A stretch of DNA of 64,000 nucleotides from OCS155 cluster bacterium AG-349-E07 (GCA_003281085.1 QCCZ01000001.1:99452-163451), one strand, 5' to 3'; positions 2,889 through 50,506 are shown, numbered from the stretch's first letter. Program-made: numbers and translations. Notes: a model not told the origin generated them from the letters alone.

Positions 2889-3131
2889 ATGGAATTTTTA
2901 GATACTCCAAATCCAAATGCAAAAAAAATATTAATAGATCATGATTTAGAAACTTCTGTATATTTAAATGATAGTAGCTCGACTACATCTTCAGAGATTT
3001 CTATCTTGTTAAAAACTTCGGGTATAAAAAATATATTCACTGGCCCCGGATTTGTCACAATTACAAAAAATGATTCCATTACTTGGGATGACATAATCCA
3101 AGACTTTAATAGCAAGTTTGATAGTATATAG
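2889..3131 (+). CDS. Nfu/NifU N-terminal-domain-like small protein
   Basis: N-terminus MEFLDTPNPNAKKI resembles the TPNPN motif of the Nfu_N scaffold domain. Confidence 0.45.
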   Translation: MEFLDTPNPNAKKILIDHDLETSVYLNDSSSTTSSEISILLKTSGIKNIFTGPGFVTITKNDSITWDDIIQDFNSKFDSI

Positions 3132-3133
3132 TT

Positions 3134-3745
3134 ATGCAAAACTTTAATCCTGACCCAAAACCTGGGAGATTAATACTTCCTCTTGTTTTAATTGGTATGA
3201 TAGCCACAACTTACACATTTATAAATAGAGTTGCTACTCAAAATGATTTGGAACTATTGGAGTCTGAGGAAGTTGCAGAGACAGTTTCCACAGAACCAGA
3301 TGAAGAAACAACAACCTCTACTTCAACCACAACTACAATTCCTGAAGATGTTGTTAAGTATCTTGAAGAAATTACGGGAGAAAAAATTCAAGCAATTGAA
3401 TTAGGTAAAAAAGTCTTAGAAACTAATCAACGTTGGGATGATAAAACTACTACATATCAAGAAGCTCAGCAAGAGTTTCAAGAATTTATTGATGATTTTG
3501 CAGATTTTGTTAATGTTTTTACAGAACCTGGACCACCAGTTGTTCAGTCTAATTTGAGCTCAAGCCATGATGAATTAGTAATACTCGTAAATCTGTTGTA
3601 TGACGATACTCAAGAATTGCTCGAGGGTTTGACCGCTCCCGATACAGGCGAAAGAAGAAACGCAGCATTAGAGTCTTTTAATAGTAATTTAGATTTATTT
3701 ATTGAAAGAATTGAGCAAGTTGTTGCCTCAGCAACTTCTAGCTAG
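3134..3745 (+). CDS. membrane-anchored Thr/Glu-rich hypothetical protein
   Basis: single N-terminal TM helix, then an acidic Thr-rich low-complexity stretch. Confidence 0.35.
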   Translation: MQNFNPDPKPGRLILPLVLIGMIATTYTFINRVATQNDLELLESEEVAETVSTEPDEETTTSTSTTTTIPEDVVKYLEEITGEKIQAIELGKKVLETNQRWDDKTTTYQEAQQEFQEFIDDFADFVNVFTEPGPPVVQSNLSSSHDELVILVNLLYDDTQELLEGLTAPDTGERRNAALESFNSNLDLFIERIEQVVASATSS

Positions 3746-4790
3746 AAGCTGCTGAACAAACTGTGTCAATCATCAACATTGCAATAACGTAAGGGTCTCC
3801 ATTAGCATTGGGTCTTCTGTCCTCTAGATAGCCTTTTTTATCTACTTCAACTTGCCAAGGAATCCTTATTGAAGCACCTCTATCACTGACTCCATAAGAA
3901 AAAGTATCAAAACTTTGAGTTTCATGATCTCCAGTAAGTCGATCTTCAATATTTGCACCATAGTTTTTTACATGCAAATCTGCATTTTTACCCAGAGCTT
4001 CGCATCCTGCAATAATGGCTTCATAGCCTCCATCTTCTCTCATCTGTTTTGTTGAGAAGTTTGTGTGCATACCCGCACCATTCCAATCACCCTTTACAGG
4101 TTTTGGATTTAAAGTTGCAGAAATATTCCAATCTTCAGCAATTCTATAAAGTAACCATCTTGCAACCCATATGTGATCACCAATATCTGGTGCTCCGACT
4201 GGACCTATTTGAAACTCCCACTGTCCTGGCATAACTTCTGCATTTGTTCCAGAAATTCCTAAGCCTGCTTCTATACAAGCTGTTGCGTGTGCTTCTGAAA
4301 TTTCACGTCCATACACTTCGTCTGCTCCAACTCCACAATAATAACCTCCTTGAGGAGCCGGATAACCTGATGGAGGGAAACCAAGAGGTTGTCCATATTT
4401 AAGAGAATCATAAGACTGCTCATAAAATGTGTACTCTTGTTCCATACCGAACCAAGGCTCAAATTCACTAAAATTTGAAGCTGATTCTACTAAAGCTGCC
4501 CTTGTATTTGAAGCATGTGGAGTCATGTCTACATTCATAACTTCACACATTACTAATATATTGTCTCCACCTCTAACTGGGTCTGGAAATTGAGCAACTG
4601 GTTTTAATACGCAATCAGATTGGTCACCTGTAGCTTGTTGTGTACTTGAACCATCAAAGCCCCAAATTGGAGGCTCTGTTCCTTGTTCTATTATCTTTGT
4701 TTTACTCCTTAGTTTTGCGGTCGGAGTTAGACCGTCAATCCATATATATTCTGCTTTTATCTTCATGAAAATAATGTAATATGTATTCAA
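3738..4790 (-). CDS. glnII: glutamine synthetase type II (eukaryote-like GSII)
   Basis: N-terminal KAEYIWIDG motif and about 350-aa length typical of GSII; GS catalytic-domain motifs. Confidence 0.8.
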   Translation of the reverse strand: MNTYYIIFMKIKAEYIWIDGLTPTAKLRSKTKIIEQGTEPPIWGFDGSSTQQATGDQSDCVLKPVAQFPDPVRGGDNILVMCEVMNVDMTPHASNTRAALVESASNFSEFEPWFGMEQEYTFYEQSYDSLKYGQPLGFPPSGYPAPQGGYYCGVGADEVYGREISEAHATACIEAGLGISGTNAEVMPGQWEFQIGPVGAPDIGDHIWVARWLLYRIAEDWNISATLNPKPVKGDWNGAGMHTNFSTKQMREDGGYEAIIAGCEALGKNADLHVKNYGANIEDRLTGDHETQSFDTFSYGVSDRGASIRIPWQVEVDKKGYLEDRRPNANGDPYVIAMLMIDTVCSAASS

Positions 4791-4830: not shown

Positions 4831-5460
4831 ATGATAGATAGTTACATAAATATAGATAAAAGCCATAAAAGCTTTGATAAAACCTTTGTAGATCTTGGGC
4901 TTAATAAACTCGTGCTAAAAAATATAACTAAATCAAATCAAATTAACTTAGTAGTTACATCGCTAGCTAAATATGGTGAAACAAAAAAGAATCTATCAGA
5001 CTTTGAATCTACGAACAAATCTTTCCCAACATTAATTATTGTTGACGACAAAGATTTTGAACAAACAATAGATTTAATTCAAAACCCTCTAATTGAGCTT
5101 ATGTCTAGTAAAAGTGAGATTGAAGAAGTAGGTGCTAGAATTCATGCTTTAGTAGGTGACAGTGAATCAGAAATACTTGAGTTCAAAGATCTCTTAATAA
5201 ACTTGAAAACTTATGATGCAAAAGCTGGAGATAGCTTGTTGGATTTAACATTTATGGAGTACGAACTACTTAAATTTTTTGTTGAAAATCAAGATAATGT
5301 TTGGTCAAGAGAACAGCTTTTAGAAAAAGTATGGGGTTATGACTATTTTGGCGGCGCTAGGACCGTGGATGTTCACGTCAGAAGGCTAAGGGCAAAACTA
5401 GGTGATAAAAGACAAGATTGGATAAAGACTGTTCACTCAGTTGGATATAAATTTAACTAA
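4831..5460 (+). CDS. OmpR/PhoB-family winged-helix transcriptional regulator with an atypical N-terminal domain (GlnR-like orphan regulator candidate)
   Basis: C-terminal VWGYDYFGGARTVDVHVRRLRAKLG is an OmpR-type trans_reg_C motif; N-terminal half lacks the canonical receiver acidic pocket; divergent from glnII. Confidence 0.55.
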   Translation: MIDSYINIDKSHKSFDKTFVDLGLNKLVLKNITKSNQINLVVTSLAKYGETKKNLSDFESTNKSFPTLIIVDDKDFEQTIDLIQNPLIELMSSKSEIEEVGARIHALVGDSESEILEFKDLLINLKTYDAKAGDSLLDLTFMEYELLKFFVENQDNVWSREQLLEKVWGYDYFGGARTVDVHVRRLRAKLGDKRQDWIKTVHSVGYKFN

Positions 5461-5800
5461 AACTGTTACCGCAGCCACAAGTTCTGGAGACATTTGGATT
5501 ATCAATAGAGAAACCGGATTCCATCAATCCTTCTTTGTAATCTAGGGTTGCACCTTTAACATGTTCCAAGCTTTGACCATCAACTACGATGTTTACTCCA
5601 TCATATTCTTCAATAACATCGCCATCGAACTTATCAGTATCAAAGAACATTTCGTATGAAAAACCTGAGCAGCCCCCTGGTTTAACACCCATTCGAAGAA
5701 AACTATCGTCGGAAGATTCCTCAGATTTTAGTTCCTTAAGCTTTTTTACAGCACTATCTGTTGCAAGAATTGCACGAGAAGATTTTATTTGTATATCCAT
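5453..5800 (-). CDS. IscA/HesB/ErpA-family Fe-S cluster insertion protein
   Basis: C-terminal CGCGNSFS (C-x-C-G-x-S-F signature); about 115 aa. Confidence 0.75.
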   Translation of the reverse strand: MDIQIKSSRAILATDSAVKKLKELKSEESSDDSFLRMGVKPGGCSGFSYEMFFDTDKFDGDVIEEYDGVNIVVDGQSLEHVKGATLDYKEGLMESGFSIDNPNVSRTCGCGNSFS

Positions 5801-5877
5801 AAAATAATTATACCAAACATCCAGTTATTCAATAAATTTGTAATTACATCTTTTTGAAAACTCCTTAGAATACTGTT

Positions 5878-7005
5878 ATGACCCAAAGTGATATTCTTTT
5901 AAAACATCTCTCAACTGTATTTGACCCTGAATTAGGGGCGAATATCGTTGAATTAGGGATGGTTAAAGATGTTCAGCATGTAGATAAAACAGTAACAATC
6001 AAATTAGCTCTGACAATAGCTGACTGTCCAATGAGGAATCAAATAGAAACAGAAATCAATAGAAAACTAAAGCTTTTGGAAAATGTTGAAACAGTAGAGA
6101 TAGAAATCACTGCAATGGATCAAAAAGATCGAACTGCTGTTATGGAAAAAGCAAGAGAAAAAGCTAGGGAAAATGCTCAACCAACAAATGTTGATCCTAG
6201 AACTAGAGTGATTGCTATTGGAAGTGGAAAAGGTGGAGTAGGGAAATCAACTTTATCTGCAAATATTGCATTAGGTTTAGCAAAAAAAGGATTTCAAACT
6301 GGACTGTTAGATGCAGATATTTGGGGATTCTCAATACCAAGGCTGTTAGGAATAACTGGAAGAATTGAAGCAAATAGTGACAAAAAAATGATTCCTTATG
6401 AGATTGGAAATTTAAAAGTAATCTCAACTGGTCTCATAACAAGCGATGAAGATACTGCATTGATGTGGAGAGGCCTTATGTTAAGTAAAGCACTTGAACA
6501 ATTCTTAACTGACGTGGAATGGGGAGATTTAGATTATCTGATAATTGACCTACCGCCTGGTACAGGAGATATACAAATGGCTCTAAGTAGATTACTTCCA
6601 CAAGCTGAGCTAATTGTTGTTACAACTCCACAATTAATGGCACAAAAAGTTGCAACAAGAGTTGCCGATATGGCAAAGAGAAGTTTCATCCCTCTGTTGG
6701 GAGTAATTGAAAATATGTCATACTTTGAATCAGACACTGGAGAAAAATATAATATTTTTGGTGAGGGTGGAGGTGAAGCTTTGTCGGATAAATTTGGAAT
6801 ACCTCTCTTAGGAAAAGTTCCTATTAGTGAAAACACAAATAATGTAGCAGACAGTGGAACTCCATTAATTGATCAAAATAATTCTATTACGAAAGTAGAG
6901 ATAGAAAAATTAATAAACAATATTGCTATCCAACTTCCTCCAATTATTGATGAAACATGTACTGGAAGACTAGCAAAAGTTTTTGAGGAACTTTCAAATC
7001 AATGA
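5878..7005 (+). CDS. mrp: Mrp/ApbC Fe-S cluster carrier ATPase with N-terminal DUF59/MIP18 domain
   Basis: deviant Walker A GKGGVGKST, ParA-like fold, N-terminal DUF59-like segment; 4-nt ATGA overlap with selA. Confidence 0.85.
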   Translation: MTQSDILLKHLSTVFDPELGANIVELGMVKDVQHVDKTVTIKLALTIADCPMRNQIETEINRKLKLLENVETVEIEITAMDQKDRTAVMEKAREKARENAQPTNVDPRTRVIAIGSGKGGVGKSTLSANIALGLAKKGFQTGLLDADIWGFSIPRLLGITGRIEANSDKKMIPYEIGNLKVISTGLITSDEDTALMWRGLMLSKALEQFLTDVEWGDLDYLIIDLPPGTGDIQMALSRLLPQAELIVVTTPQLMAQKVATRVADMAKRSFIPLLGVIENMSYFESDTGEKYNIFGEGGGEALSDKFGIPLLGKVPISENTNNVADSGTPLIDQNNSITKVEIEKLINNIAIQLPPIIDETCTGRLAKVFEELSNQ

Positions 7006-8297
7006 ACCCTATTTCTGTTAATGAATTAACTGAATCAGTAAACTCTAATTTACCAAGAGATATAAAATCTACGATTGCAAAAAATATACTTTCAGAGGAA
7101 AAAGACTCTGATGTTGCAAAAAATATATTCTCTGAAATTATAAATGATTTAAGTTCAAAAACTCAAAGAGAAGTTGTAAATGCAACTGGTACTGTACTAC
7201 ATACAAACTTAGGTCGTTCTCCAAATAACATAAGCTTTCCTGGAAGTTATACAAATATTGAATACGATTTAAAGACTTTATCTAGAGGAAAAAGAAATGA
7301 ATACCTATCTGTACTTATGAATAACCTTATAGAATCTCAGGATATTGCTTTTGTAAACAACAATGCCTCTTCTCTTTTTCTCTCATTAAAAGCCATTTCT
7401 AAGTCACATAATATTCAAAATGTAATTATTTCTAGAGGTGAAATTATAGAAATTGGAGGCTCATATAGGCTTCCTGAAATAATCAATGAGACTGGTTTAG
7501 ACCTTGTAGAGATAGGCACAACAAACAAGACTAAATTGAGTGATTACAGAAAAGCATTAGAAAAGTACCCAAATTCTTTGATATTAAAAGTTCACAGGTC
7601 AAATTTCTCAATCAAGGGTTTTACAGAGGATGTTTCAATTGAAGAACTCGCTGAATTAAAAAATAAATTTGACGTTTTTCTTTTTCATGACTTGGGGAGT
7701 GGTTTAGTAATTGATAAGAAATTTTTAGAAATTAATAATATAAGTATCTTCAAAGATGAACCATTTGTGCAAGATTCACTTTCTGATGGTGCAAATTTAG
7801 TTATGTTTTCTGGAGACAAATTATTTGGGTCAGTTCAATCTGGAATGATTGCAGGAGATGACGACTTGGTTAATGAAATTAAAAACTACAGTTTGTTTAG
7901 AACTTATCGTTGCTCACCTATGACCTTATTTGAACTTCAAGAGACTGTACTTAAATATATAAATAAACAAGAAAAAGAGATACCTTTTTGGAATCTTATT
8001 ACACAACCTTATTCCTCCTTAGAAGATAGGTGTAAAAATTTGGCTAAATCTATTTCTTTTTCTACAAGCATAGAAAAAGGTGAAAGTGTAATTGGTGGAG
8101 GAACACTACCAGATGTCACTTTAGAATCACCTATCTTACTTATAAATAATGAAAAAACAGTAGATACTGTCAATCAGTTAATTAAAAACGATATCCCCAT
8201 AATTCCAAGAATTATTAAGGATCAAGTTTGTCTTGATTTAAGAAGTGTATTTCATAATCAAGATAACATAATTGTACAAGCATTAAATAATTCATGA
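7002..8297 (+). CDS. selA: L-seryl-tRNA(Sec) selenium transferase (selenocysteine synthase)
   Basis: blocks match E. coli SelA: ATGTVLHTNLGR, EYDL..RGKR, FVNNNA, SRGEIIEIGGSYRLPE, EIGTTNKT, FSGDKLFG..Q.G; overlaps selB start (ATGA). Confidence 0.85.
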   Translation: MNPISVNELTESVNSNLPRDIKSTIAKNILSEEKDSDVAKNIFSEIINDLSSKTQREVVNATGTVLHTNLGRSPNNISFPGSYTNIEYDLKTLSRGKRNEYLSVLMNNLIESQDIAFVNNNASSLFLSLKAISKSHNIQNVIISRGEIIEIGGSYRLPEIINETGLDLVEIGTTNKTKLSDYRKALEKYPNSLILKVHRSNFSIKGFTEDVSIEELAELKNKFDVFLFHDLGSGLVIDKKFLEINNISIFKDEPFVQDSLSDGANLVMFSGDKLFGSVQSGMIAGDDDLVNEIKNYSLFRTYRCSPMTLFELQETVLKYINKQEKEIPFWNLITQPYSSLEDRCKNLAKSISFSTSIEKGESVIGGGTLPDVTLESPILLINNEKTVDTVNQLIKNDIPIIPRIIKDQVCLDLRSVFHNQDNIIVQALNNS

Positions 8298-9967
8298 CCG
8301 TACTTGCAACTGCAGGCCATGTAGATCATGGAAAATCAACTTTTGTAAATTTTTTAACAGGTCAAGAAACTGACAGATTAAAAGAAGAAAAAATCCGCGG
8401 ATTAACTATAAATCTTGGATATACCTATTTTGAATTTAAAAATAGAAGAATATCTATTGTTGATGTCCCTGGTCATGTTGACTACTTTAAAAACACCATT
8501 GCAGGATTTGCAAATGTCGACGGTATAATTTTTTGTATCGACTCTGTTCAGGGGTGGTCTAGACAATCAGAGGAACATTTTCAAGCAATTAGAAATCTGC
8601 AGATTAATAATATTTTTTTTGTACTAACAAAAACAGATTTACTAGATTCTCCAGTTGATAAAAGTTATCTTGAAAAAAAATTAAAAGATGAAAAAGAAAT
8701 AAATTACACAATTGATGAATTTACTTATAAAACTAGCGATCTTAAACTATTTCAAGAAAAAATAGTAAACTTCTTTAAGTCTGACTCATTTGAAAACCCA
8801 AATTCATTATGGATTGATCGTAGTTTTACCAAGGATGGAATTGGTAAAGTTATAACTGGTACTGCTTCTATGGCTTTTGATTTAGAAAATATGTATCTTG
8901 CTAGGACAAACAAATTATTAGAAGTAAAAGAAATACGAAATAGTGAAGATAAAGTTAAAAATATTACATCCACATCAAGAATTGCTATCTCTCTCAAGAA
9001 GGGTACTCAAGACGATATTAGTCGAGGCGATTTGTTAACGAATGGAGTTGTTTCTTCAGGTAAATATATTTTTGCAATTTTAAATGGAAATGATAATGGG
9101 TTTAAGAACAAAGGAAGCAATAGATTGTTTGTTGGGACAATAAATCAAATTGTCAAAAGATTAGAGATTATAAATGCTTCAGAAAAAATTTTAATATATA
9201 TAGAGCTACCAAATAAATTACCAATATTAGAAAACCAGAAAATATTAATTCAAAACATGGTGTCTAATGATTTCATAGGTGGAAAAATTGCATTTGTTTC
9301 GAATAATAATAATTTAGTTAAAACATTTTTCAGACAAGTTCGAAAAACTGAATTTATTGATGTAGAAAAAGCATTTACTCTTCTTTCAGAAAATCTAAAG
9401 GAAAATTCCAAAGATTATATAGATATAAGCAACAAATACATATCAAAAGATTATTTGGAACGTATGACCCAAAAAATTAAGGAAAATATAAAAACTATAA
9501 ATTCGGTTGGTGTTAAAAATTATTTCCATGATCAATTTTTCATAGAGGATAATTATATTGATGAATTAATAGATAAAATCGATGGGTTAAATATTATAAA
9601 TGACCAGTTATTTGTTGATAAAGAAACAGTTGTTGATTTAGAGGTTTACCAGAACGTTATCAAGGAGATGTCGACCGATCTATCAGTTAAACGTGTTGAT
9701 ATAGATAAGTTCAATAAAGAATCTATAAAAGAACTCTTTATGAACGAGTATCTATTTAGAGTTAATAAAAATATAATTATTGGAAAAGAGCATAAATCAG
9801 AGCTTGTTGAAATTCTGGAAAAATTACCTGATATTTTTGATGTATCCGAATTTAAAGAAGCTTCTAATTTATCCAGAAAGTATGCGATACCTTATTTGGA
9901 GTTTTTAGATAAATGTTTATATACTTCAAAAATTAATAGTTCAGGAAAAAGAAAAAAATTAGTTTGA
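8294..9967 (+). CDS. selB: selenocysteine-specific translation elongation factor
   Basis: N-terminal ATAGHVDHGKST, DVPGH GTPase motifs matching SelB; long C-terminal extension ending in a winged-helix-like segment (RKYAIPYLEFLDK). Confidence 0.85.
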   Translation: MTVLATAGHVDHGKSTFVNFLTGQETDRLKEEKIRGLTINLGYTYFEFKNRRISIVDVPGHVDYFKNTIAGFANVDGIIFCIDSVQGWSRQSEEHFQAIRNLQINNIFFVLTKTDLLDSPVDKSYLEKKLKDEKEINYTIDEFTYKTSDLKLFQEKIVNFFKSDSFENPNSLWIDRSFTKDGIGKVITGTASMAFDLENMYLARTNKLLEVKEIRNSEDKVKNITSTSRIAISLKKGTQDDISRGDLLTNGVVSSGKYIFAILNGNDNGFKNKGSNRLFVGTINQIVKRLEIINASEKILIYIELPNKLPILENQKILIQNMVSNDFIGGKIAFVSNNNNLVKTFFRQVRKTEFIDVEKAFTLLSENLKENSKDYIDISNKYISKDYLERMTQKIKENIKTINSVGVKNYFHDQFFIEDNYIDELIDKIDGLNIINDQLFVDKETVVDLEVYQNVIKEMSTDLSVKRVDIDKFNKESIKELFMNEYLFRVNKNIIIGKEHKSELVEILEKLPDIFDVSEFKEASNLSRKYAIPYLEFLDKCLYTSKINSSGKRKKLV

Positions 9968-16093: not shown

Positions 16094-17347
16094 TTAACTA
16101 GCTTCTTGAAGTTTTCTTAAACTATTAATTAAATTTTCAGGAAGTTCAACTGAGTCTTTTGTAATTGGTTCACCTTTTTTTAGTTCTTTAATAACAGTTG
16201 CGCCTTCTAATAAGCCAAGTGGAATTAAATTGTCTGTATTTGCAACAGGATAAGTTACACCGTATGTGGCAAATCCCCCAATTCCATCAATCTTTTCACC
16301 TTTTTTTAGGTCTTTTTTTGCATGGCCAATAACTTCTGCAATCCATGACTTTGGTTGTAGCCCGGGTTCATTATTTATGATGGCCATCCCAATACTTCTA
16401 GGTGCTTCAATTGAAGCGAGGTGATAAGGCCTATAAAGAGTGTAATATGGACCTTCTCCCATAGATAAATACTCCATTTCTTCAATAACAGTTGGGTTGT
16501 CCGATTTCACAATAGAAAACACTCCTGGTGCTGGTCCAAATGCATAGTCAACTCTTCCAGATTCACTTAAAACACCCCCATCAGCTTTAGGGATAAGGAC
16601 TTTGTTTAATTCCTCTACTGAACTTACTGGTCCGTTCATGCCAATTTGATCTGGTGGTAAATTAATTGCATTTGCTAAAGCCGTCATTTCAATCATAGTT
16701 TTTGAACCATCTTCAAAACTTGCTAGCATTTTTGGATTCATATTCTTCTTAGTAGCTTTTTCTAAACAGGTATCAGGATTTGCAGTTTGGTCTAGTGGGT
16801 TGTTTTTTCCTTTTCCGACACACACTATCTCAAAACCTAAATCCACTGAGAAGTCATATAGCTCTTTACATGCAACTGGTTCATCACCATTCGCAACACT
16901 ATAAACTACATTATTTTTATTTGCTTTATTGGCTAAATACATCCCTATTGTGACATCTGTCTCTACATTCAACATGAGTATATGTTTTTGTGCCTCAATA
17001 CAGGCATCGGCAACCTCCGCACCAACCCATGGCACTCCAGTTGCTTCGAATACAATATCTATTGGTAGTTCTGCAAGAGCAGCTGCATTATCTACTACAC
17101 CACCTTGTCCGCTTTGGATAGACTTTGACGCCTCCTTGTTGTGTTTTACATACTCAACTCCAGCAAGATGTAATGCATTCTCAGCTCTTCCAATATCTAT
17201 ATCAGCACAAGCAACGAGGTTCATTCCTGGTATTTTCCCAATTTGTGCAGCAAGGCCGGAACCCATTTGGCCAGCACCAGCCAACCCAACTCTTACTGGT
17301 CTACCTAAATCTTTTTCACGAGCAATTAATAATTCTGTATAGTTCAA
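16094..17347 (-). CDS. NAD(P)-binding oxidoreductase with C-terminal SAF-like domain (COG4091 / homoserine-dehydrogenase-like family)
   Basis: N-terminal Rossmann GLAGAGQMG; C-terminal GEKIDGIGGFATYG SAF-like segment; about 417 aa. Confidence 0.5.
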   Translation of the reverse strand: MNYTELLIAREKDLGRPVRVGLAGAGQMGSGLAAQIGKIPGMNLVACADIDIGRAENALHLAGVEYVKHNKEASKSIQSGQGGVVDNAAALAELPIDIVFEATGVPWVGAEVADACIEAQKHILMLNVETDVTIGMYLANKANKNNVVYSVANGDEPVACKELYDFSVDLGFEIVCVGKGKNNPLDQTANPDTCLEKATKKNMNPKMLASFEDGSKTMIEMTALANAINLPPDQIGMNGPVSSVEELNKVLIPKADGGVLSESGRVDYAFGPAPGVFSIVKSDNPTVIEEMEYLSMGEGPYYTLYRPYHLASIEAPRSIGMAIINNEPGLQPKSWIAEVIGHAKKDLKKGEKIDGIGGFATYGVTYPVANTDNLIPLGLLEGATVIKELKKGEPITKDSVELPENLINSLRKLQEAS

Positions 17348-17703
17348 TTGTTTATCCTTAAATTATCCCCAATGCTTATATTAGGTTTATTATCAAATGT
17401 ACACCTGACATCTCCAAGCTGTGCTTCCTCAGTTGAAGAGTCAAGTTTTAAAACTAAATGACCTAAATTTTTAAAGTTTTCATTGGCTACAGGCCCTACA
17501 GAGACAACTTCTAAATTAGAATCTGAAAGACTTATTTTTGTTCCAACTACTATTTCACCAGAGATTTGCTCTAGTTTATGTATTACCGCAAAATCTTGAA
17601 GTTCCTCTGGTGCATTGTCACCAAAAAAAACTACAATTCCTTCATCTAAAAATAAATTAGCTTGTTCGCCTATTCTTACTATTTCTGAAGAATAAATTTG
17701 CAT
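17344..17703 (-). CDS. srlB: PTS glucitol/sorbitol-family EIIA component
   Basis: aligns by eye to E. coli SrlB (EIVRIGEQA vs TITRIGASA; LGHLVLKLDS vs LGHVTLRFDG); about 119 aa. Confidence 0.7.
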   Translation of the reverse strand: MQIYSSEIVRIGEQANLFLDEGIVVFFGDNAPEELQDFAVIHKLEQISGEIVVGTKISLSDSNLEVVSVGPVANENFKNLGHLVLKLDSSTEEAQLGDVRCTFDNKPNISIGDNLRINN

Positions 17704-18080
17704 TAAGCTTCAGTAACTTGATCCTCAGAAACTCCAGAAACAAAGTTCTCTTCTTTAATAAATTGAGCAAGTGGACCTGCTGGTGTAGTGTCATGAATAT
17801 CAATCGTTGGTACGCCCTTCATAGGATATACACCGATTCTCGCAGTTCCTCCACAATCAATTACTGCACAAGCCATGGCTTTAAAGCTTCCCTCTGGTGA
17901 TGATTTAAAGCCATCAAAGGCTTCCGCCCCAGTTAAATCAGCAATTTTTTGAGCAACTGGATGAATTCCTCCACCAGTAACGCAAACAATGTATTTTTTT
18001 TCATCAGTTGGTTGTATTTCTAAAGGGCCTCCCCAACCACTTGGCCCTGCTTCTACTTTTACTTTTTTATAATCTGCCAT
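17703..18080 (-). CDS. PTS glucitol/sorbitol-family EIIB domain protein (homolog of the SrlE N-terminal domain)
   Basis: GWGGPLEI, AVIDCGGT, PTIDIHDT, GPLAQFI blocks match the SrlE EIIB domain. Confidence 0.7.
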   Translation of the reverse strand: MADYKKVKVEAGPSGWGGPLEIQPTDEKKYIVCVTGGGIHPVAQKIADLTGAEAFDGFKSSPEGSFKAMACAVIDCGGTARIGVYPMKGVPTIDIHDTTPAGPLAQFIKEENFVSGVSEDQVTEA

Positions 18081-18100
18081 AGTTTCTCCTTTAAAAATAT

Positions 18101-18130
18101 GTAACGCTCTGATTTTAGTCAGAGCGTTAC
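18101..18130 (-). terminator. intra-operon perfect 12-bp-stem hairpin (GTAACGCTCTGA-TTTTAG-TCAGAGCGTTAC) followed on the transcript by AUAUUUUUAA, then the RBS of the EIIB gene; partial terminator or attenuator candidate
   Basis: palindrome read directly from the sequence, placed between the EIIC-domain and EIIB genes. Confidence 0.4.
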
Positions 18131-18157
18131 AAATTTAAAAATTGTTAAGTTATGTCT

Positions 18158-18682
18158 TTACAAACCTAGTGCAAATAAATAACCAACAACGACTGAGATT
18201 GGTCCAGTAATCATTCTACTTGTTAGAACTGCTGGAACACCAACCGTAACTGTCTCCGGTTCTGCTTCACCAAGAGCCAGACCAACTGGTACGAAATCAC
18301 AACCAACCTGTGGGTTAATTGCAAATAAAGCTGGAAGCGCCATTGAAACATCAATGTTTCCACGTCCAATTTCAGTACCAATTAGAACACCAACGATCTG
18401 AGCAATTACTGCACCAGGTCCTAGTAGTGGTGATAAAACAGGTATTGCGCATATGATACAAACTATCATTAATCCGCCTAAACTACTTGCAAAACCTTTT
18501 ATACCATTTGCAATAGCGTCACCAACACCGGTTTCTAAAATTAAACCAATGACAAAAGTAACGAATGCCATAAATGGAATTATTGTTTTTAAACATAGGT
18601 CAACAGCATCTCGACCTGCTTGGAACAATGTTCCAACCACGCCACCAACTGATCGACCAATTCTCTCTATTAAAGCTTGCAT
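18158..18682 (-). CDS. PTS glucitol/sorbitol-family EIIC domain protein (homolog of the SrlE C-terminal membrane domain)
   Basis: SPLLGPGAVIAQIVG, LPALFAINPQVGCDFVPVGLALGEAEPETV blocks resemble the SrlE membrane domain as I recall it; about 174 aa, several TM. Confidence 0.6.
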   Translation of the reverse strand: MQALIERIGRSVGGVVGTLFQAGRDAVDLCLKTIIPFMAFVTFVIGLILETGVGDAIANGIKGFASSLGGLMIVCIICAIPVLSPLLGPGAVIAQIVGVLIGTEIGRGNIDVSMALPALFAINPQVGCDFVPVGLALGEAEPETVTVGVPAVLTSRMITGPISVVVGYLFALGL

Positions 18683-19224
18683 TATTCAACACCTGCCCTT
18701 CTTGACGTCATAATGTTATAGATAATATCAGTTACGATACCTCTAATTAATATGACTACAAGGCCAGCAAGAAGATATCTAACTGCTAAAGCAGTTACCA
18801 TATCTGGTGCAACTATTTCTACACCTGCTGCAATCCCTAACCATACAAACAACTCTCCACCATTCGCATGTGGAAAAATTCCTGTAATGGGATGAACAAA
18901 GCTTACTGCTGAATCATAAAATGCTGGTTTATGTTTTTCAGGCAAAAAGGTACCGAATGTATAGCAAACTGGGTTAGTAAGCATAAATACAGCTACAAAC
19001 GGTAAAAGAGTATAACGAACAGGCATGTAAATTGCCCCTTCTTGAGAAGCCCATTTTGCAAAGCCCTCAACTCTTTCCTCACCGATGAACTTGACTAAAG
19101 CATTAACTGCAGTCAAGAACACAACCACAATTGGAATAATTCCAGTTGTGAAACCAACAAATACATCAGCAGCGGTTCTAAATACTTGGATAAAGGCTTC
19201 TGCGCCTGCTACCAAAGCATCCAT
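18682..19224 (-). CDS. srlA: PTS glucitol/sorbitol-family EIIC2 component
   Basis: close match to E. coli SrlA (FLPEKHKPAFY vs FMPEKYKPSYY; GIFPHANGGELFVWLGIA vs GLFPHINPGELFVYLGIA). Confidence 0.75.
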   Translation of the reverse strand: MDALVAGAEAFIQVFRTAADVFVGFTTGIIPIVVVFLTAVNALVKFIGEERVEGFAKWASQEGAIYMPVRYTLLPFVAVFMLTNPVCYTFGTFLPEKHKPAFYDSAVSFVHPITGIFPHANGGELFVWLGIAAGVEIVAPDMVTALAVRYLLAGLVVILIRGIVTDIIYNIMTSRRAGVE

Positions 19225-19242
19225 ATCTCCCCCTCCTTATAA

Positions 19243-19656
19243 TTAATTTGTCGAATTACTATCTGCTTTACTTTGAAGTTTTTTTATCAAAGTGTCAGCT
19301 GCCATTTTGGCAGCATCCCAGATAGGTTCTTTGTTTTCTGAGTTAGCAATTTCATTTAATGTTTTGCCATTAAATAACGAAACTTTTTTACTTTTTGCAA
19401 AAGTAGTTACCCCCTCCAGAGTAAGACCGTTAACAATGGTTGAATTTACATCAGCAGAGATTGCTAGATAGATTTTTTTTCTCCCCCATTTAGGTTGATT
19501 TACACCTATAGCGACTTCCAAGCCAGGTCCTTTAATGCTGTTTACTGCATCTAAGAAACCAGTAGCCTGTTTTTTAGCAAGATACATCTGTAAAACCCAC
19601 ATAAGTGCGAGTGTTACAAATATGACACCAAGTGCATATGGTGAACTAGATAACAA
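19243..19656 (-). CDS. gutM: GutM-like glucitol-operon activator
   Basis: single N-terminal TM segment plus GRKKIYLAISADVNSTIVNGLTLEGVTTFAKSKK resembling GutM. Confidence 0.55.
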   Translation of the reverse strand: MLSSSPYALGVIFVTLALMWVLQMYLAKKQATGFLDAVNSIKGPGLEVAIGVNQPKWGRKKIYLAISADVNSTIVNGLTLEGVTTFAKSKKVSLFNGKTLNEIANSENKEPIWDAAKMAADTLIKKLQSKADSNSTN

Positions 19657-19785
19657 CTTCCATCCTTCAACTTAAATAGTTAATTTAATTCTACATAAAT
19701 GATTCTTCGAATTTTGGTAAAAACCCGAAATCTTAAAAATAATGTAACCATTTTTGATTAAGAAAGGCCTGTTTTTAGGATTTTT

Positions 19786-20466
19786 TTAAATCATTTCCTC
19801 AAGTTTAAAGATATCTTCTATAAAAGTTACCTTCATGTTTCTTGGATCGCCAGGAATTACTACTGCCTCAAGCTCAGAATATTTTGATACGCATTCTGTT
19901 GTGTCTACTGCTTGCCATTTATCTAATTTTGCTAATTCATAGGATTTCCAAAGTTCTGAAGCTGGAAATATCTGTGGAGTTTGTATCTCTACAATTGTTT
20001 CTTGGATTTCTTCTTTGTTAAATTCCTGTTTTTTCATAAGATTATCTGAGTTATACCCAGGAGCTGAAGCTCCATATTTTTTTGCAACATCAATAAGCTC
20101 GTCTAACAAATAACTAGGTAACAGAGGTCTTGCGCCATCATGAATTAAAATTAGGTCTTCTTCATTTATATCTGGTCTTTCTTTTAAATAAAGAAGTCCT
20201 TGATATTCACTTTCATGTCTTGTGTTCCCACCAATTGTTACACCAGATAATTTTTTGGGATTAACTAGCTGAATTACATTATTAGTTTTTTCCCAGTCTT
20301 CATCCCTTACAACCAAAATTATTGAGTCAACTTTATCGGAATTATCTAGTGTCTCTAGTGGCCAGGAAAGTGCTGGCTTACCGCCAATTGGAAAGTAAAC
20401 TTTGTTTTCTTCATTATTAAACCTGTCGCTAGAACCACCAGCTAGAAGAATAGAATGTACTTTCAA
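19786..20466 (-). CDS. IspD/TarI-family polyol-phosphate cytidylyltransferase
   Basis: N-terminal ILLAGGSSDRF and GGKP nucleotide-binding motifs; about 226 aa; 4-nt overlap with ptsI. Confidence 0.65.
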   Translation of the reverse strand: MKVHSILLAGGSSDRFNNEENKVYFPIGGKPALSWPLETLDNSDKVDSIILVVRDEDWEKTNNVIQLVNPKKLSGVTIGGNTRHESEYQGLLYLKERPDINEEDLILIHDGARPLLPSYLLDELIDVAKKYGASAPGYNSDNLMKKQEFNKEEIQETIVEIQTPQIFPASELWKSYELAKLDKWQAVDTTECVSKYSELEAVVIPGDPRNMKVTFIEDIFKLEEMI

Positions 20467-22094
20467 TTTATAATTTCTTGAATAATCGTTCTAACCTCAT
20501 CAGCATTATTCTGTTGTAAAATCTGATCTTTTATCTTTTGTTTGTTAATTTTTGAGTGTGTATCTAAAGCATCAAATACAAAAGGAGCTGCTGAAGGTGC
20601 CATACTAAATATCTTTAAACCTAAAATGTATAAAACAAATGCTGAGACGGGATCTGATGACATTTCACCACATACTGACACCTCGGTATTATTTGCATTA
20701 CAACAATCAATTACATTAGAAATTGCCCTAAGTACCGCTGGATGAAGTGGGTCTTGGTACGGGCTTAAATTATTGTTGCCACGGTCTGCAGCCATAATGT
20801 ACTGCGTCAAATCGTTGGTGCCAATAGATATGAAATCAACAATTTCTGAAAACTTATCAGCAATCAATGCTGACGAGGGTGTCTCTACCATGATACCGAG
20901 TGGGGGAACTTCAACATTTAAGTTATTCGCTATTTTAGCAACAAACTCTTTTGCTTTTATAAAATCTTCTATAGTAGAAATCATTGGAAACATAATTTTT
21001 AATCTTCCTAATGATTTAGAATTTAAGATTGATTTTATTTGTGTGTCAAATAATTCAATATCATCCAACAATAATCTAATACCCCTTACGCCAAGAAAGG
21101 GGTTTTCTTCTGAAGGTAAATTCAGATAATCTACTTGTTTGTCACCTCCAATATCAAGAGTTCTATAGACAATTATTCCAGTGAATTTTTGAGTTATTTG
21201 TTCTAGAACCCTTGTTTGTTCCTCAAGTGTTGGAATGGTTGTGTTGTCTAAATATATAAACTCGGACCTAAATAAGCCAATGGAGTTTAAAAAGGGATGA
21301 TTAAATGAAATAATCTCCTCTAAAGAACCAATATTAACTCTGAATTCTACTCCTAATTCTTCGTACTTTTTTTTAGTAAAATTATCAATCAACTTTGTTA
21401 TATTGCCTTGTTTTTCTTTGAATTCAGATATCTGATTCTCACTTGGAGAAATAACAATATTCCCCGTATCACCGTCAATTGTCATTAACTCGCCATCTGC
21501 AATATTGTCGAGCAAACTTTTTACGCCGATCACGCAAGGGATACCCAAATTCTTTGCAACGATAACAGCATGCGAAGTAAACCCTCCTTCTTTTAATATA
21601 ATTCCATTAACTTTACTCAAATCCATTGATGATGTATCTGCAGGTGTTAAGTCTTCAGCGATTAAAATAGTGTTTTCGTTTAAAGTAATTTCTCTTTCAA
21701 TGTTTTGCATATTGAAAACAAGGTGTTTTCCTACAGAGAGTATGTCTTCAGCTCGTTGCTTAAAATAAACATCTTCCATTGATTCAAATACACTTGCAGT
21801 GGACGTAAAAATACTATAAACCTCTTCGACTGAAGAATCTGAATTTTGATTTAGTTGAGCCACTATTTCAGGATCTTGAAGGATCAATATGTATGCATCT
21901 AAAATGTCAGCTTCATCATTTCTTTCTTTTGAGCGGAAATCAAGGATTTGAGAACTAAATTTTTCAATCAGTTGTTTGCTAGCCTCAACATGAGTGAGGA
22001 TTGCTTCTTTATCAAAATCTATCTCATTTTCATAAACAAATGATGAACCTATTGCAACACCTAATGAAGCACCTAGTCCCTTAACACTTGTCAT
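20463..22094 (-). CDS. ptsI: phosphoenolpyruvate--protein phosphotransferase (PTS enzyme I)
   Basis: phospho-His region GGFTSHAVIVAKNLGIPCVIG; GTNDLTQY; CGEM motifs. Confidence 0.85.
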   Translation of the reverse strand: MTSVKGLGASLGVAIGSSFVYENEIDFDKEAILTHVEASKQLIEKFSSQILDFRSKERNDEADILDAYILILQDPEIVAQLNQNSDSSVEEVYSIFTSTASVFESMEDVYFKQRAEDILSVGKHLVFNMQNIEREITLNENTILIAEDLTPADTSSMDLSKVNGIILKEGGFTSHAVIVAKNLGIPCVIGVKSLLDNIADGELMTIDGDTGNIVISPSENQISEFKEKQGNITKLIDNFTKKKYEELGVEFRVNIGSLEEIISFNHPFLNSIGLFRSEFIYLDNTTIPTLEEQTRVLEQITQKFTGIIVYRTLDIGGDKQVDYLNLPSEENPFLGVRGIRLLLDDIELFDTQIKSILNSKSLGRLKIMFPMISTIEDFIKAKEFVAKIANNLNVEVPPLGIMVETPSSALIADKFSEIVDFISIGTNDLTQYIMAADRGNNNLSPYQDPLHPAVLRAISNVIDCCNANNTEVSVCGEMSSDPVSAFVLYILGLKIFSMAPSAAPFVFDALDTHSKINKQKIKDQILQQNNADEVRTIIQEIIN

Positions 22095-49999: not shown

Positions 50000-50149
50000 G
50001 AATTTAAGTATAAATCATCCTAATTTTTGCCCAAATGATAAAAATAAACGATACAACACTAAAATAAGAGTAAGACTTCCTTTCGTACTTTGAGCCACTT
50101 CAAAAGGGCGATAAAACAAAAATTACAGCCACAGGGAGTCTTTTTGCCT

Positions 50150-50420
50150 TTTTTCAGAAAAAACATTGTATAAAGTGAAAATCCCGATTGATCTTGCGAC
50201 CCTCCGGGATTTTCGAACTATCTTCTATTAGGTCTTGCGACTTCATTTCTGATAGTTATATAAAAATAGTGTAGATTTGCTATTTTGGCAAGAAATTTGA
50301 GTTTGTTTTTTTCGCGAACTTTTATACATAAATTCTATAAATATTTCAATGTGGAAAGCAAAAATCCCGATTGATCTTCCGACCCTTCGGGATTTTCTGT
50401 TCTATCTTCTTTTCTATCTT
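50150..50420 (+). repeat. diverged tandem duplication of an approximately 180-bp intergenic unit, each copy with a conserved hairpin AAAATCCCG-N18-CGGGATTTT (50178..50213 and 50361..50396)
   Basis: read directly; the two copies align over about 120 bp, ending ...ggcaag / ...tgcaag. Confidence 0.55.
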
Positions 50421-50506
50421 TCGATTTCTTTTCCGATAGTGTTCTATAAATATACGTTATTTTTTATTCTTATGCAAGATATTTACTAATCTATTTTTCG
50501 CGAGGT

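Follow-up and report, generated by a model that had tools for sequence, protein, structure and literature searches.

Does the overlap of selenocysteine (Sec) genes with the gene for an Mrp-type ATPase point to a shared function, or is it what genome shrinkage leaves behind? The question is raised by a stretch of 64,000 nucleotides (nt) from OCS155 cluster bacterium AG-349-E07 (GCA_003281085.1, QCCZ01000001.1:99452-163451), called the window below, in which mrp, selA, and selB follow one another on the plus strand with overlapping reading frames. A preliminary description, made from the sequence alone, had taken the three genes for an operon tying an iron-sulfur (Fe-S) carrier to the synthesis of a selenoenzyme. 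We consider it far more probable (about 0.85) that the locus is a canonical bacterial selAB module of "Candidatus Actinomarina," abutted to a housekeeping mrp by genome shrinkage. The window belongs to "Candidatus Actinomarina," and its SelA is 81 to 96% identical to proteins of five genome records from single cells and metagenome assemblies (one titled OCS155 cluster bacterium and four "Candidatus Actinomarina"). The observation holds, the locus is ordinary, and selenocysteine use in Actinomarina was already reported in April 2026 in the preprint "Actinomarina, resolved" (bioRxiv 10.64898/2026.04.03.716425). That preprint makes no mention of mrp, of the mrp-selA-selB overlaps, or of the spaced arrangement in high-GC relatives, all of which are added here. 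The features at issue are the following.

5453-5800, minus strand: iscA-type gene, 115 amino acids (aa), A-type Fe-S carrier, IscA/ErpA-like, divergent from mrp.
5801-5877, no strand: iscA-mrp spacer of 77 nt, the sole noncoding space upstream of the predicted operon in the gene map.
5878-7005, plus strand: mrp, 375 aa, Mrp/NBP35-family P-loop ATPase, first of the co-oriented block.
7002-7005, plus strand: mrp/selA ATGA overlap, with ATG at 7002-7004 and TGA at 7003-7005 and 3 shared bases between stop and start codons.
7002-8297, plus strand: selA, 431 aa, L-seryl-tRNA(Sec) selenium transferase (TIGR00474, PF03841).
8294-8297, plus strand: selA/selB ATGA overlap, with ATG at 8294-8296 and TGA at 8295-8297, read from the sequence.
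8294-9967, plus strand: selB, 557 aa, selenocysteine-specific elongation factor of divergent sequence (TIGR00475).
Minus strand, convergent with selB: whiB, which the selB stop codon (TGA, 9965-9967) overlaps by 9 nt.

The list of open reading frames (ORFs) and the profile searches agree with the preliminary description in placing the minus-strand IscA/ErpA-like gene, mrp, selA, and selB, and both ATGA overlaps at the positions it gave can be read directly from the sequence. Its term "translationally fused" holds in that the three genes are co-oriented and overlapping; they occupy separate frames, and no fused protein is encoded. Candidates for an Mrp-SelA protein fusion among unusually long SelA homologues (P0123, P0156, and P0227) proved to be duplicated or N-terminally extended SelAs. 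The genes mrp, selA, and selB all terminate in TGA (7003-7005, 8295-8297, and 9965-9967), the codon that is also read as selenocysteine, and TGA is the stop used least often by window ORFs of 100 aa or more (11, versus 47 for TAA and 16 for TAG).

SelA converts Ser-tRNA(Sec) and selenophosphate into Sec-tRNA(Sec), and SelB delivers Sec-tRNA(Sec) to UGA codons that have a downstream selenocysteine insertion sequence (SECIS) hairpin. The window SelA passes the equivalog threshold of TIGR00474 (383.4 bits against a cut-off of 267.9) over nearly its full length (residues 19 to 429) and scores 325 bits against PF03841. In an alignment to the Aquifex aeolicus SelA structure 3W1H (E = 8e-73), R86, K285, R312, and R315 align to identical residues, and the active site keeps the pyridoxal phosphate lysine and the three selenophosphate-binding arginines ("GDK," "NLGR," and "R..R"). 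All 44 columns that are invariant among 30 diverse SelA sequences (44/44) are retained, including K273, D272, R72, R300, and R303. The N-terminal region is short, with ~57 residues before the core versus ~72 in A. aeolicus, and the profile search returned no match to PF12390, the N-terminal tRNA(Sec)-binding domain, which some other SelAs do match; a shortened tRNA-binding domain is plausible from these comparisons. Outside the lineage, in a library of representatives at 50% identity, similarity to the closest SelA falls from 85% to at most 44%, and the next matches come from mixed phyla and so give no usable clue to origin.

SelB scores 204.8 bits against TIGR00475, below the cut-off of 242.25 though full-length (residues 3 to 544 of 557), and the runner-up family is far weaker (EF-1-alpha, 89.5 bits against a cut-off of 502). 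The below-threshold score is likely due to composition bias and divergence. The alignment to A. aeolicus SelB (4ZU9) spans residues 3 to 544 (E = 2e-42), and the G1 to G4 motifs GHVDHGKST, RGLTI, DVPGH, and LTKTD (the SelB-type TKxD) align to both A. aeolicus and E. coli SelB. The pocket residues "IDR" and "SRIA" are kept in the alignment to 4ZU9. At the C terminus, PF09107 (SelB-wing_3) matches residues 507 to 547, and the final winged helix, "RKYAIPYLEFLD," aligns to "RKYLIPLLEYLD" of 4ZU9; its role in SECIS binding is predicted from the family. The report on Actinomarina likewise found a divergent selB, so that in the same genus and for the same genes selB lies below the profile threshold in both analyses (KofamScan, 268 versus 306; TIGR00475, 205 versus 242) (bioRxiv 10.64898/2026.04.03.716425).

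As in the selAB operon of Escherichia coli, selA is closely followed by selB in the window and selC and selD are unlinked, and the catalytic lysine and arginines of SelA and the GTPase and winged-helix motifs of SelB are conserved. The E. coli chains in the PDB are longer (SelA, 463 aa; SelB, 614 aa) than the 431 and 557 aa of the window proteins. A SECIS-like autoregulatory element is borne by E. coli selA. Unlike E. coli, the window has an unrelated gene, mrp, overlapping selA upstream and no SECIS-like hairpin at the start of selA (z = -1.25 at the mrp/selA junction); no SECIS-like or autoregulatory hairpin was found at the selA/selB junction (z = -0.73) or downstream of the selB stop (z = 0.22) either, none of these folds being significant.

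Are these genes still at work, or are they decaying leftovers in an organism that does not recode UGA? Several observations might suggest decay: SelB falls under the curated TIGR00475 cut-off, SelA has the short N-terminal region without a PF12390 match, neither selC nor selD nor a selenoprotein gene was found in the window, and between the window and a second Actinomarina genome (L006) SelA and SelB are only 81% and 75% identical, versus 92% for Mrp, 96.5% for WhiB, and 97% for glutamine synthetase. However, across six Actinomarina species the ratio of nonsynonymous to synonymous substitution rates (dN/dS) is far below 1 for both genes (0.10 to 0.15 for selA, 0.16 to 0.25 for selB), and both frames are unbroken and constant in length at 431 and 557 aa. 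The retained invariant SelA columns and the SelB GTPase, pocket, and winged-helix motifs also speak against decay, as do the selC and selD genes reported for 84 of 84 complete genomes together with ~5 predicted selenoproteins per genome (bioRxiv 10.64898/2026.04.03.716425). We therefore reject the idea of relic genes, which on the conservation of these sequences would be the least probable of the alternatives weighed here. The dN/dS values of neighboring genes in the same six species are lower (mrp, 0.03 to 0.05; glutamine synthetase, ~0.02), with selA and selB exceeding mrp by a factor of three to six. Both genes change more quickly than those around them, yet they are clearly under purifying selection. 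The identity of the two genes, their intactness, the purifying selection on them, and the conservation of their overlaps are all shown by the comparisons of coding sequence.

The rest of the selenocysteine pathway is not in the window. ARAGORN detects no tRNA there, and the same program, as a positive control, detects tRNA-SeC in five unrelated SelA loci (L041, L052, L064, L066, and L085); no Rfam family matches the window at gathering thresholds. A tblastn search with an E. coli SelD query finds no selD in the window or its flanks, and the same query detects selD in six fetched metagenome loci, which are among the 71 SelA loci outside the actinobacterial group. Selenoprotein genes were sought in all six frames as ORFs broken by a single TGA, and every gene was also checked for extension past a TGA stop or for an upstream in-frame TGA; neither of these two scans gave a credible TGA-interrupted gene in the window, only antisense or overlapping artefacts. 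Among the candidates, the one at 2941 (minus strand) is antisense to the Nfu_N gene, and that at 50017 (minus strand) lies upstream of the start of a complete apurinic/apyrimidinic (AP) endonuclease gene. Extension past 50507 adds only 6 codons, with no hairpin visible by eye downstream of the TGA. Nor did locus L007, which covers 10 kb upstream of the window, yield selC; it holds cell-surface sugar genes and no tRNA. The preliminary description's report of no tRNA-Sec, selD, or TGA-interrupted ORF in the window is thus borne out.

Genome-wide, the picture is different. The preprint reports selA, selC, and selD, plus the divergent selB, in 84 of 84 complete Actinomarina genomes, and its deep-learning prediction of selenoproteins includes a SelD that itself contains Sec, a 78-aa protein without an assigned function, and a member of the K07090 family (bioRxiv 10.64898/2026.04.03.716425). 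Its Supplementary Table 8 places selC and selD ~0.17 to 0.19 genome lengths from selA, across dnaA (bioRxiv 10.64898/2026.04.03.716425), and at that distance neither gene is expected in a 64-kb window around selA. That Actinomarina decodes UGA as selenocysteine is therefore supported, the part concerning selC and selD coming from the preprint only. The proposal that UGA is decoded as Sec in this AT-rich, streamlined organism is upheld in the same way, by selA and selB that are intact and under purifying selection and by the reported selC and selD. The genome-wide lack of selD and selC that the preliminary description had named as evidence for relic genes is the opposite of what the preprint reports.

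The surroundings of selA in the preprint can be compared with the window. There, selA adjoins the edge of a hypervariable sugar-decoration island (bioRxiv 10.64898/2026.04.03.716425). The 10 kb upstream of the window in L007 carry genes for an epimerase, a DegT-type aminotransferase, a glycosyltransferase, and an asparagine-synthase-like protein, and the relative L006 has a tRNA-Phe/Asp/Lys cluster upstream; both the sugar genes and the tRNA cluster fit the placing of selA at the island edge. The start of the window itself borders the variable sugar island, where ArgS (676-2307) and the ORFs at 2310-2843 and 3134-3745 are only 41 to 81% identical among Actinomarina species, and genes from 3738 onward are 92 to 100% identical. 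In Table 8 of the preprint (bioRxiv 10.64898/2026.04.03.716425), where HVR stands for the hypervariable region, every genome marked "selC in HVR = Y" has selA at ~0.07 to 0.11, selC at ~0.89, and selD at ~0.91, while those marked "N" have selA at ~0.9, selC at 0.10, and selD at 0.08, which is the mirror image (1-x) of the former. Given this mirror image, the reported location of selC in the hypervariable region in 32 of 84 genomes looks like an artefact of genome orientation and not like mobility of selC, and the same effect may lie behind the preprint's "secondary hotspot at 10-15%." The tabulated positions also conflict with the preprint's text, which puts selA at 91 to 92% in all genomes.

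How, then, did mrp come to touch selA? A homologue search with SelA gave only variants at least 97% identical, and distant synteny was taken from a metagenome scan seeded with an alignment of diverse SelA sequences, which yielded 80 loci. Within the Actinomarina genomes compared, the block GS(-)-RR-IscA(-)-Mrp-SelA-SelB-WhiB(-)-NfeD(-) is invariant (GS, glutamine synthetase; RR, regulator gene; minus signs denote the minus strand). The mrp/selA ATGA overlap is identical in six Actinomarina species and in locus L008, and the selA/selB overlap is kept in the six species and also, at a greater distance, in L009 and L010. Three low-GC loci whose SelA is 50 to 59% identical to that of the window (L009 to L011), probably more distant members of the same order as Actinomarina, have the same gene order with mrp-selA spacings of -1, +6, and +4 nt. 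Three high-GC loci (L068, L015, and L035), in which SelA is ~36% identical to the window protein and which are actinobacterial to judge from the presence of WhiB, share with the window the frame that runs from IscA(-) and mrp to SelA-SelB-WhiB(-)-NfeD(-). Unlike in the window, opposite-strand genes covering 0.65 to 3.7 kb separate mrp from selA in these loci, which makes co-transcription of the two impossible. L068 reads IscA(-)-Mrp-[RDD, M23 peptidase, MBL-fold hydrolase, and NUDIX, all minus]-SelA-SelB-WhiB(-)-NfeD(-), and L015 reads [M23, MBL, NUDIX, and FxsA, all minus]-SelA-SelB-WhiB(-)-NfeD(-). In L035, mrp is followed by ~650 bp with an unverified minus-strand ORF and then by SelA-SelB. 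No homologue of the intervening RDD, M23, MBL, NUDIX, or FxsA genes was found in the window or in any low-GC locus. The spaced arrangement in the high-GC relatives suggests that the mrp-selA adjacency is derived, by deletion, and the simplest reading would be a long residence of selAB between mrp and whiB followed by a streamlining that removed the genes between.

These comparisons bear directly on the possibility that mrp is joined to selAB for a functional reason, either because the selenoproteins belong to the Fe-S or molybdopterin enzymes (formate dehydrogenase, for example), as the preliminary description had proposed, or because Mrp handles selenium. The conservation of the overlapping frames throughout Actinomarina, the persistence of near-abutting spacing in the more distant low-GC relatives, and the nearby IscA and Nfu_N genes would all be in keeping with such a coupling. 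However, the high-GC relatives with the same neighborhood keep mrp and selA apart, and no Mrp homologue accompanies SelA in any of the 52 loci whose upstream sequence reaches 1.2 kb or more (0/52, among the 71 loci outside the actinobacterial group). The divergent IscA(-)/Mrp(+) pair exists also in L068, where other genes lie between mrp and selA, and overlaps join unrelated genes elsewhere in the window. As for the enzymes to be served, formate dehydrogenase genes are reported in marine Acidimicrobiales, which are a different order and say nothing about Actinomarina. The selenoprotein families named in the preprint are SelD, the 78-aa unknown, and K07090, and the word "formate" is absent from its main text and from one supplementary spreadsheet (bioRxiv 10.64898/2026.04.03.716425). 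We thus regard a functional coupling as very unlikely, and the step from linkage with an Fe-S carrier to an Fe-S or molybdopterin selenoenzyme is not sustained by the spacing in high-GC relatives, the 52 loci, the commonplace overlaps, or the preprint's list of selenoproteins.

The Mrp protein itself adds a further difficulty. It has an N-terminal DUF59/FeS_assembly_P domain (PF01883, 53 bits), a ParA/NUBPL P-loop domain (PF10609, 285 bits), and the deviant Walker A motif GKGGVGKST, and it falls below the equivalog cut-offs for ApbC (NF008669, 232.7 versus 348) and MrpORP (255 versus 450). In the ApbC/NBP35 proteins, a CxxC pair ligates a bridging [4Fe-4S] cluster. The window protein aligns to E. 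coli Mrp (8ZKC) with E = 3e-53, and in that alignment (near residues 290 to 296) the "CSNC" of E. coli meets "SDTG," so the CxxC is absent; apart from cysteines in the DUF59 domain ("ADCP") and close to the C terminus ("ETCTG"), the protein has none. It is therefore like the ApbC/Mrp/NBP35 carriers (E. coli Mrp 8ZKC and Salmonella ApbC) in its NUBPL/ParA P-loop with the GKGGVGKS Walker A motif and in its N-terminal DUF59, common in bacterial Mrp proteins, and unlike them in lacking the CxxC and in scoring under the ApbC and MrpORP cut-offs. In the Mrp of the high-GC relative L068 (3230-4339), the CxxC loop is deleted and reads "ENMTGDVFGEGGG," and from these two sequences the missing CxxC may be general in this actinobacterial lineage. 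A search of one paper collection for the actinobacterial Mrp Rv1229c returned nothing. Since there is no CxxC motif, the label of Fe-S carrier is uncertain; of the earlier assignment to mrp/apbC, membership in the Mrp/NBP35 family stands and the ApbC part does not, and the gene is to be annotated as an ATPase of the Mrp/NBP35 family rather than ApbC. An Mrp without CxxC cluster ligands also argues against the functional coupling discussed above. In the low-GC Actinomarina lineage, a CxxC-less Mrp-family ATPase might instead have come to work together with the selenocysteine pathway, the overlap being selected for stoichiometric co-expression; if true, Mrp could couple expression, or the delivery of selenium or sulfur species, to SelA. 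We consider this highly improbable, slightly more so than the coupling in its general form.

The IscA-type protein gives no more reason to link Fe-S assembly with selenium. It matches PF01521 (Fe-S_biosyn, 64 bits) and TIGR00049 (120.1 bits against a cut-off of 58.8), lies under the ErpA equivalog cut-off (106.9 versus 117), and has the three carrier cysteines in its translation ("GGCSG" and "CGCG"). Its score for the selenoprotein subfamily IscA_HesB_Se is 47 bits against a cut-off of 85, so it is a standard carrier, which again speaks against coupling. We conclude that iscA is a housekeeping neighbor, outside the selenocysteine machinery.

What the overlaps can tell us depends on how common they are. 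The window is ~95% coding, and 15 of its 53 same-strand neighbor pairs overlap, 8 of them by 4 nt. Unrelated overlapping pairs include PtsI/IspD, AP endonuclease/ornithine-diaminopimelate (Orn-DAP) decarboxylase, and SDR/CutA1. With overlaps so commonplace, an ATGA overlap is weak evidence of shared function. Regarding transcription, no plus-strand terminator-like site was found within 5878-9967, and mrp, selA, and selB are probably transcribed together from the 77-nt spacer and translationally coupled. The spacer (5801-5877) would on this layout be the site of divergent promoters; it contains one weak promoter-like match (5843-5871), and its RNA folding is not significant (z = 0.05). The number of promoter-like matches is what chance would give (20, versus 24.4 +/- 4.5 in shuffled sequence).

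An alternative is that selAB is transcribed independently, from a promoter in the 3' part of mrp, in which case there would be no mrp-selAB operon in the regulatory sense. AT-rich coding DNA is rich in promoter-like hexamers, one of which lies inside mrp (6725-6753, 10 of 12 positions), and selAB of the high-GC relatives must have its own promoter, the upstream genes there being on the other strand. Yet the promoter-like matches do not exceed those of shuffled sequence, as noted, and the 4-nt overlap leaves no room for a terminator, of which none was found on the plus strand. We judge independent transcription to be very unlikely, about as much so as the functional coupling of mrp with selAB.

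Taken together, the reading that we prefer, a canonical selAB module brought against a housekeeping mrp by genome shrinkage, would run as follows. The selAB pair would have been inherited at a fixed place, downstream of the divergent iscA/mrp pair and upstream of the convergent whiB-nfeD genes. Streamlining in the Actinomarina lineage would then have deleted the opposite-strand genes between mrp and selA and left mrp, selA, and selB abutting, with an overlap of 4 nt in Actinomarina proper. One transcript would start from the 77-nt iscA-mrp spacer, and translation would be coupled at the overlaps. The Sec-tRNA(Sec) made by SelA would be brought by SelB to UGA and SECIS in the mRNAs of selenoproteins, whose genes, like selC and selD, would lie elsewhere on the ~1.1-Mb chromosome.

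Several points weigh against this reading or parts of it. For selC, selD, and the selenoproteins, the source is an unreviewed preprint. Co-transcription is read from gene layout, and an internal selA promoter inside mrp is conceivable in such AT-rich DNA. The preference for deletion over an insertion in the high-GC lineages is drawn from three metagenomic loci of unassigned taxonomy. The mrp-selA adjacency persists in low-GC relatives with SelA only 50% identical, and gene order is otherwise fluid between Actinomarina species (bioRxiv 10.64898/2026.04.03.716425). Some selective value of co-expression is thus conceivable; yet the whole eight-gene block, unrelated genes included, is equally conserved.

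Other genes of the window lie farther from the selenocysteine genes. Those on the side of iscA are the following, among them the nearby Nfu-N gene of the preliminary description, which the gene map locates.

2889-3131, plus strand: Nfu_N gene.
3738-4790, minus strand: glutamine synthetase, 350 aa, adjoining the 209-aa regulator.
4831-5460: 209-aa protein with an OmpR-type DNA-binding domain only (Trans_reg_C, residues 137 to 208).

The profile search showed no recognizable receiver domain in the 209-aa protein (4831-5460), and its position beside glutamine synthetase and its domain content suggest that it may be a GlnR-like orphan regulator. Two features of the window stand apart from the locus. 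At 16094-22094 (minus strand), this very small genome encodes a glucitol/sorbitol-type phosphotransferase system (PTS; EIIC, EIIBC, and EIIA), a DRL-type oxidoreductase, and PTS enzyme I, the gene for which overlaps ispD by 4 nt. The largest noncoding gap, 507 nt at 50000-50506, contains a tandem duplication of ~184 nt (50164-50268 and 50347-50452), each copy of which bears the hairpin AAAATCCCG-N17-CGGGATTTT. No Rfam family matches this gap even at E <= 1; a small RNA, paired terminators, and a regulatory leader are all candidate roles for the element.

For the organism, the locus is an example of a costly recoding system kept in the ~1.1-Mb genome of a free-living marine bacterium that ranks among the smallest and most abundant, a point that is already public. 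Added here are independent evidence, from other Actinomarina genomes, of purifying selection on selA and selB and the reconstruction of the mrp-selA-selB arrangement by loss of intervening genes, which is unreported but unremarkable. If the coupling of mrp to selAB is a by-product of compaction, it is no sign that Mrp or Fe-S assembly serves selenoproteins. More generally, the case is a warning that operon membership and ATGA overlaps are a poor guide to function in streamlined genomes, where unrelated genes are routinely joined.

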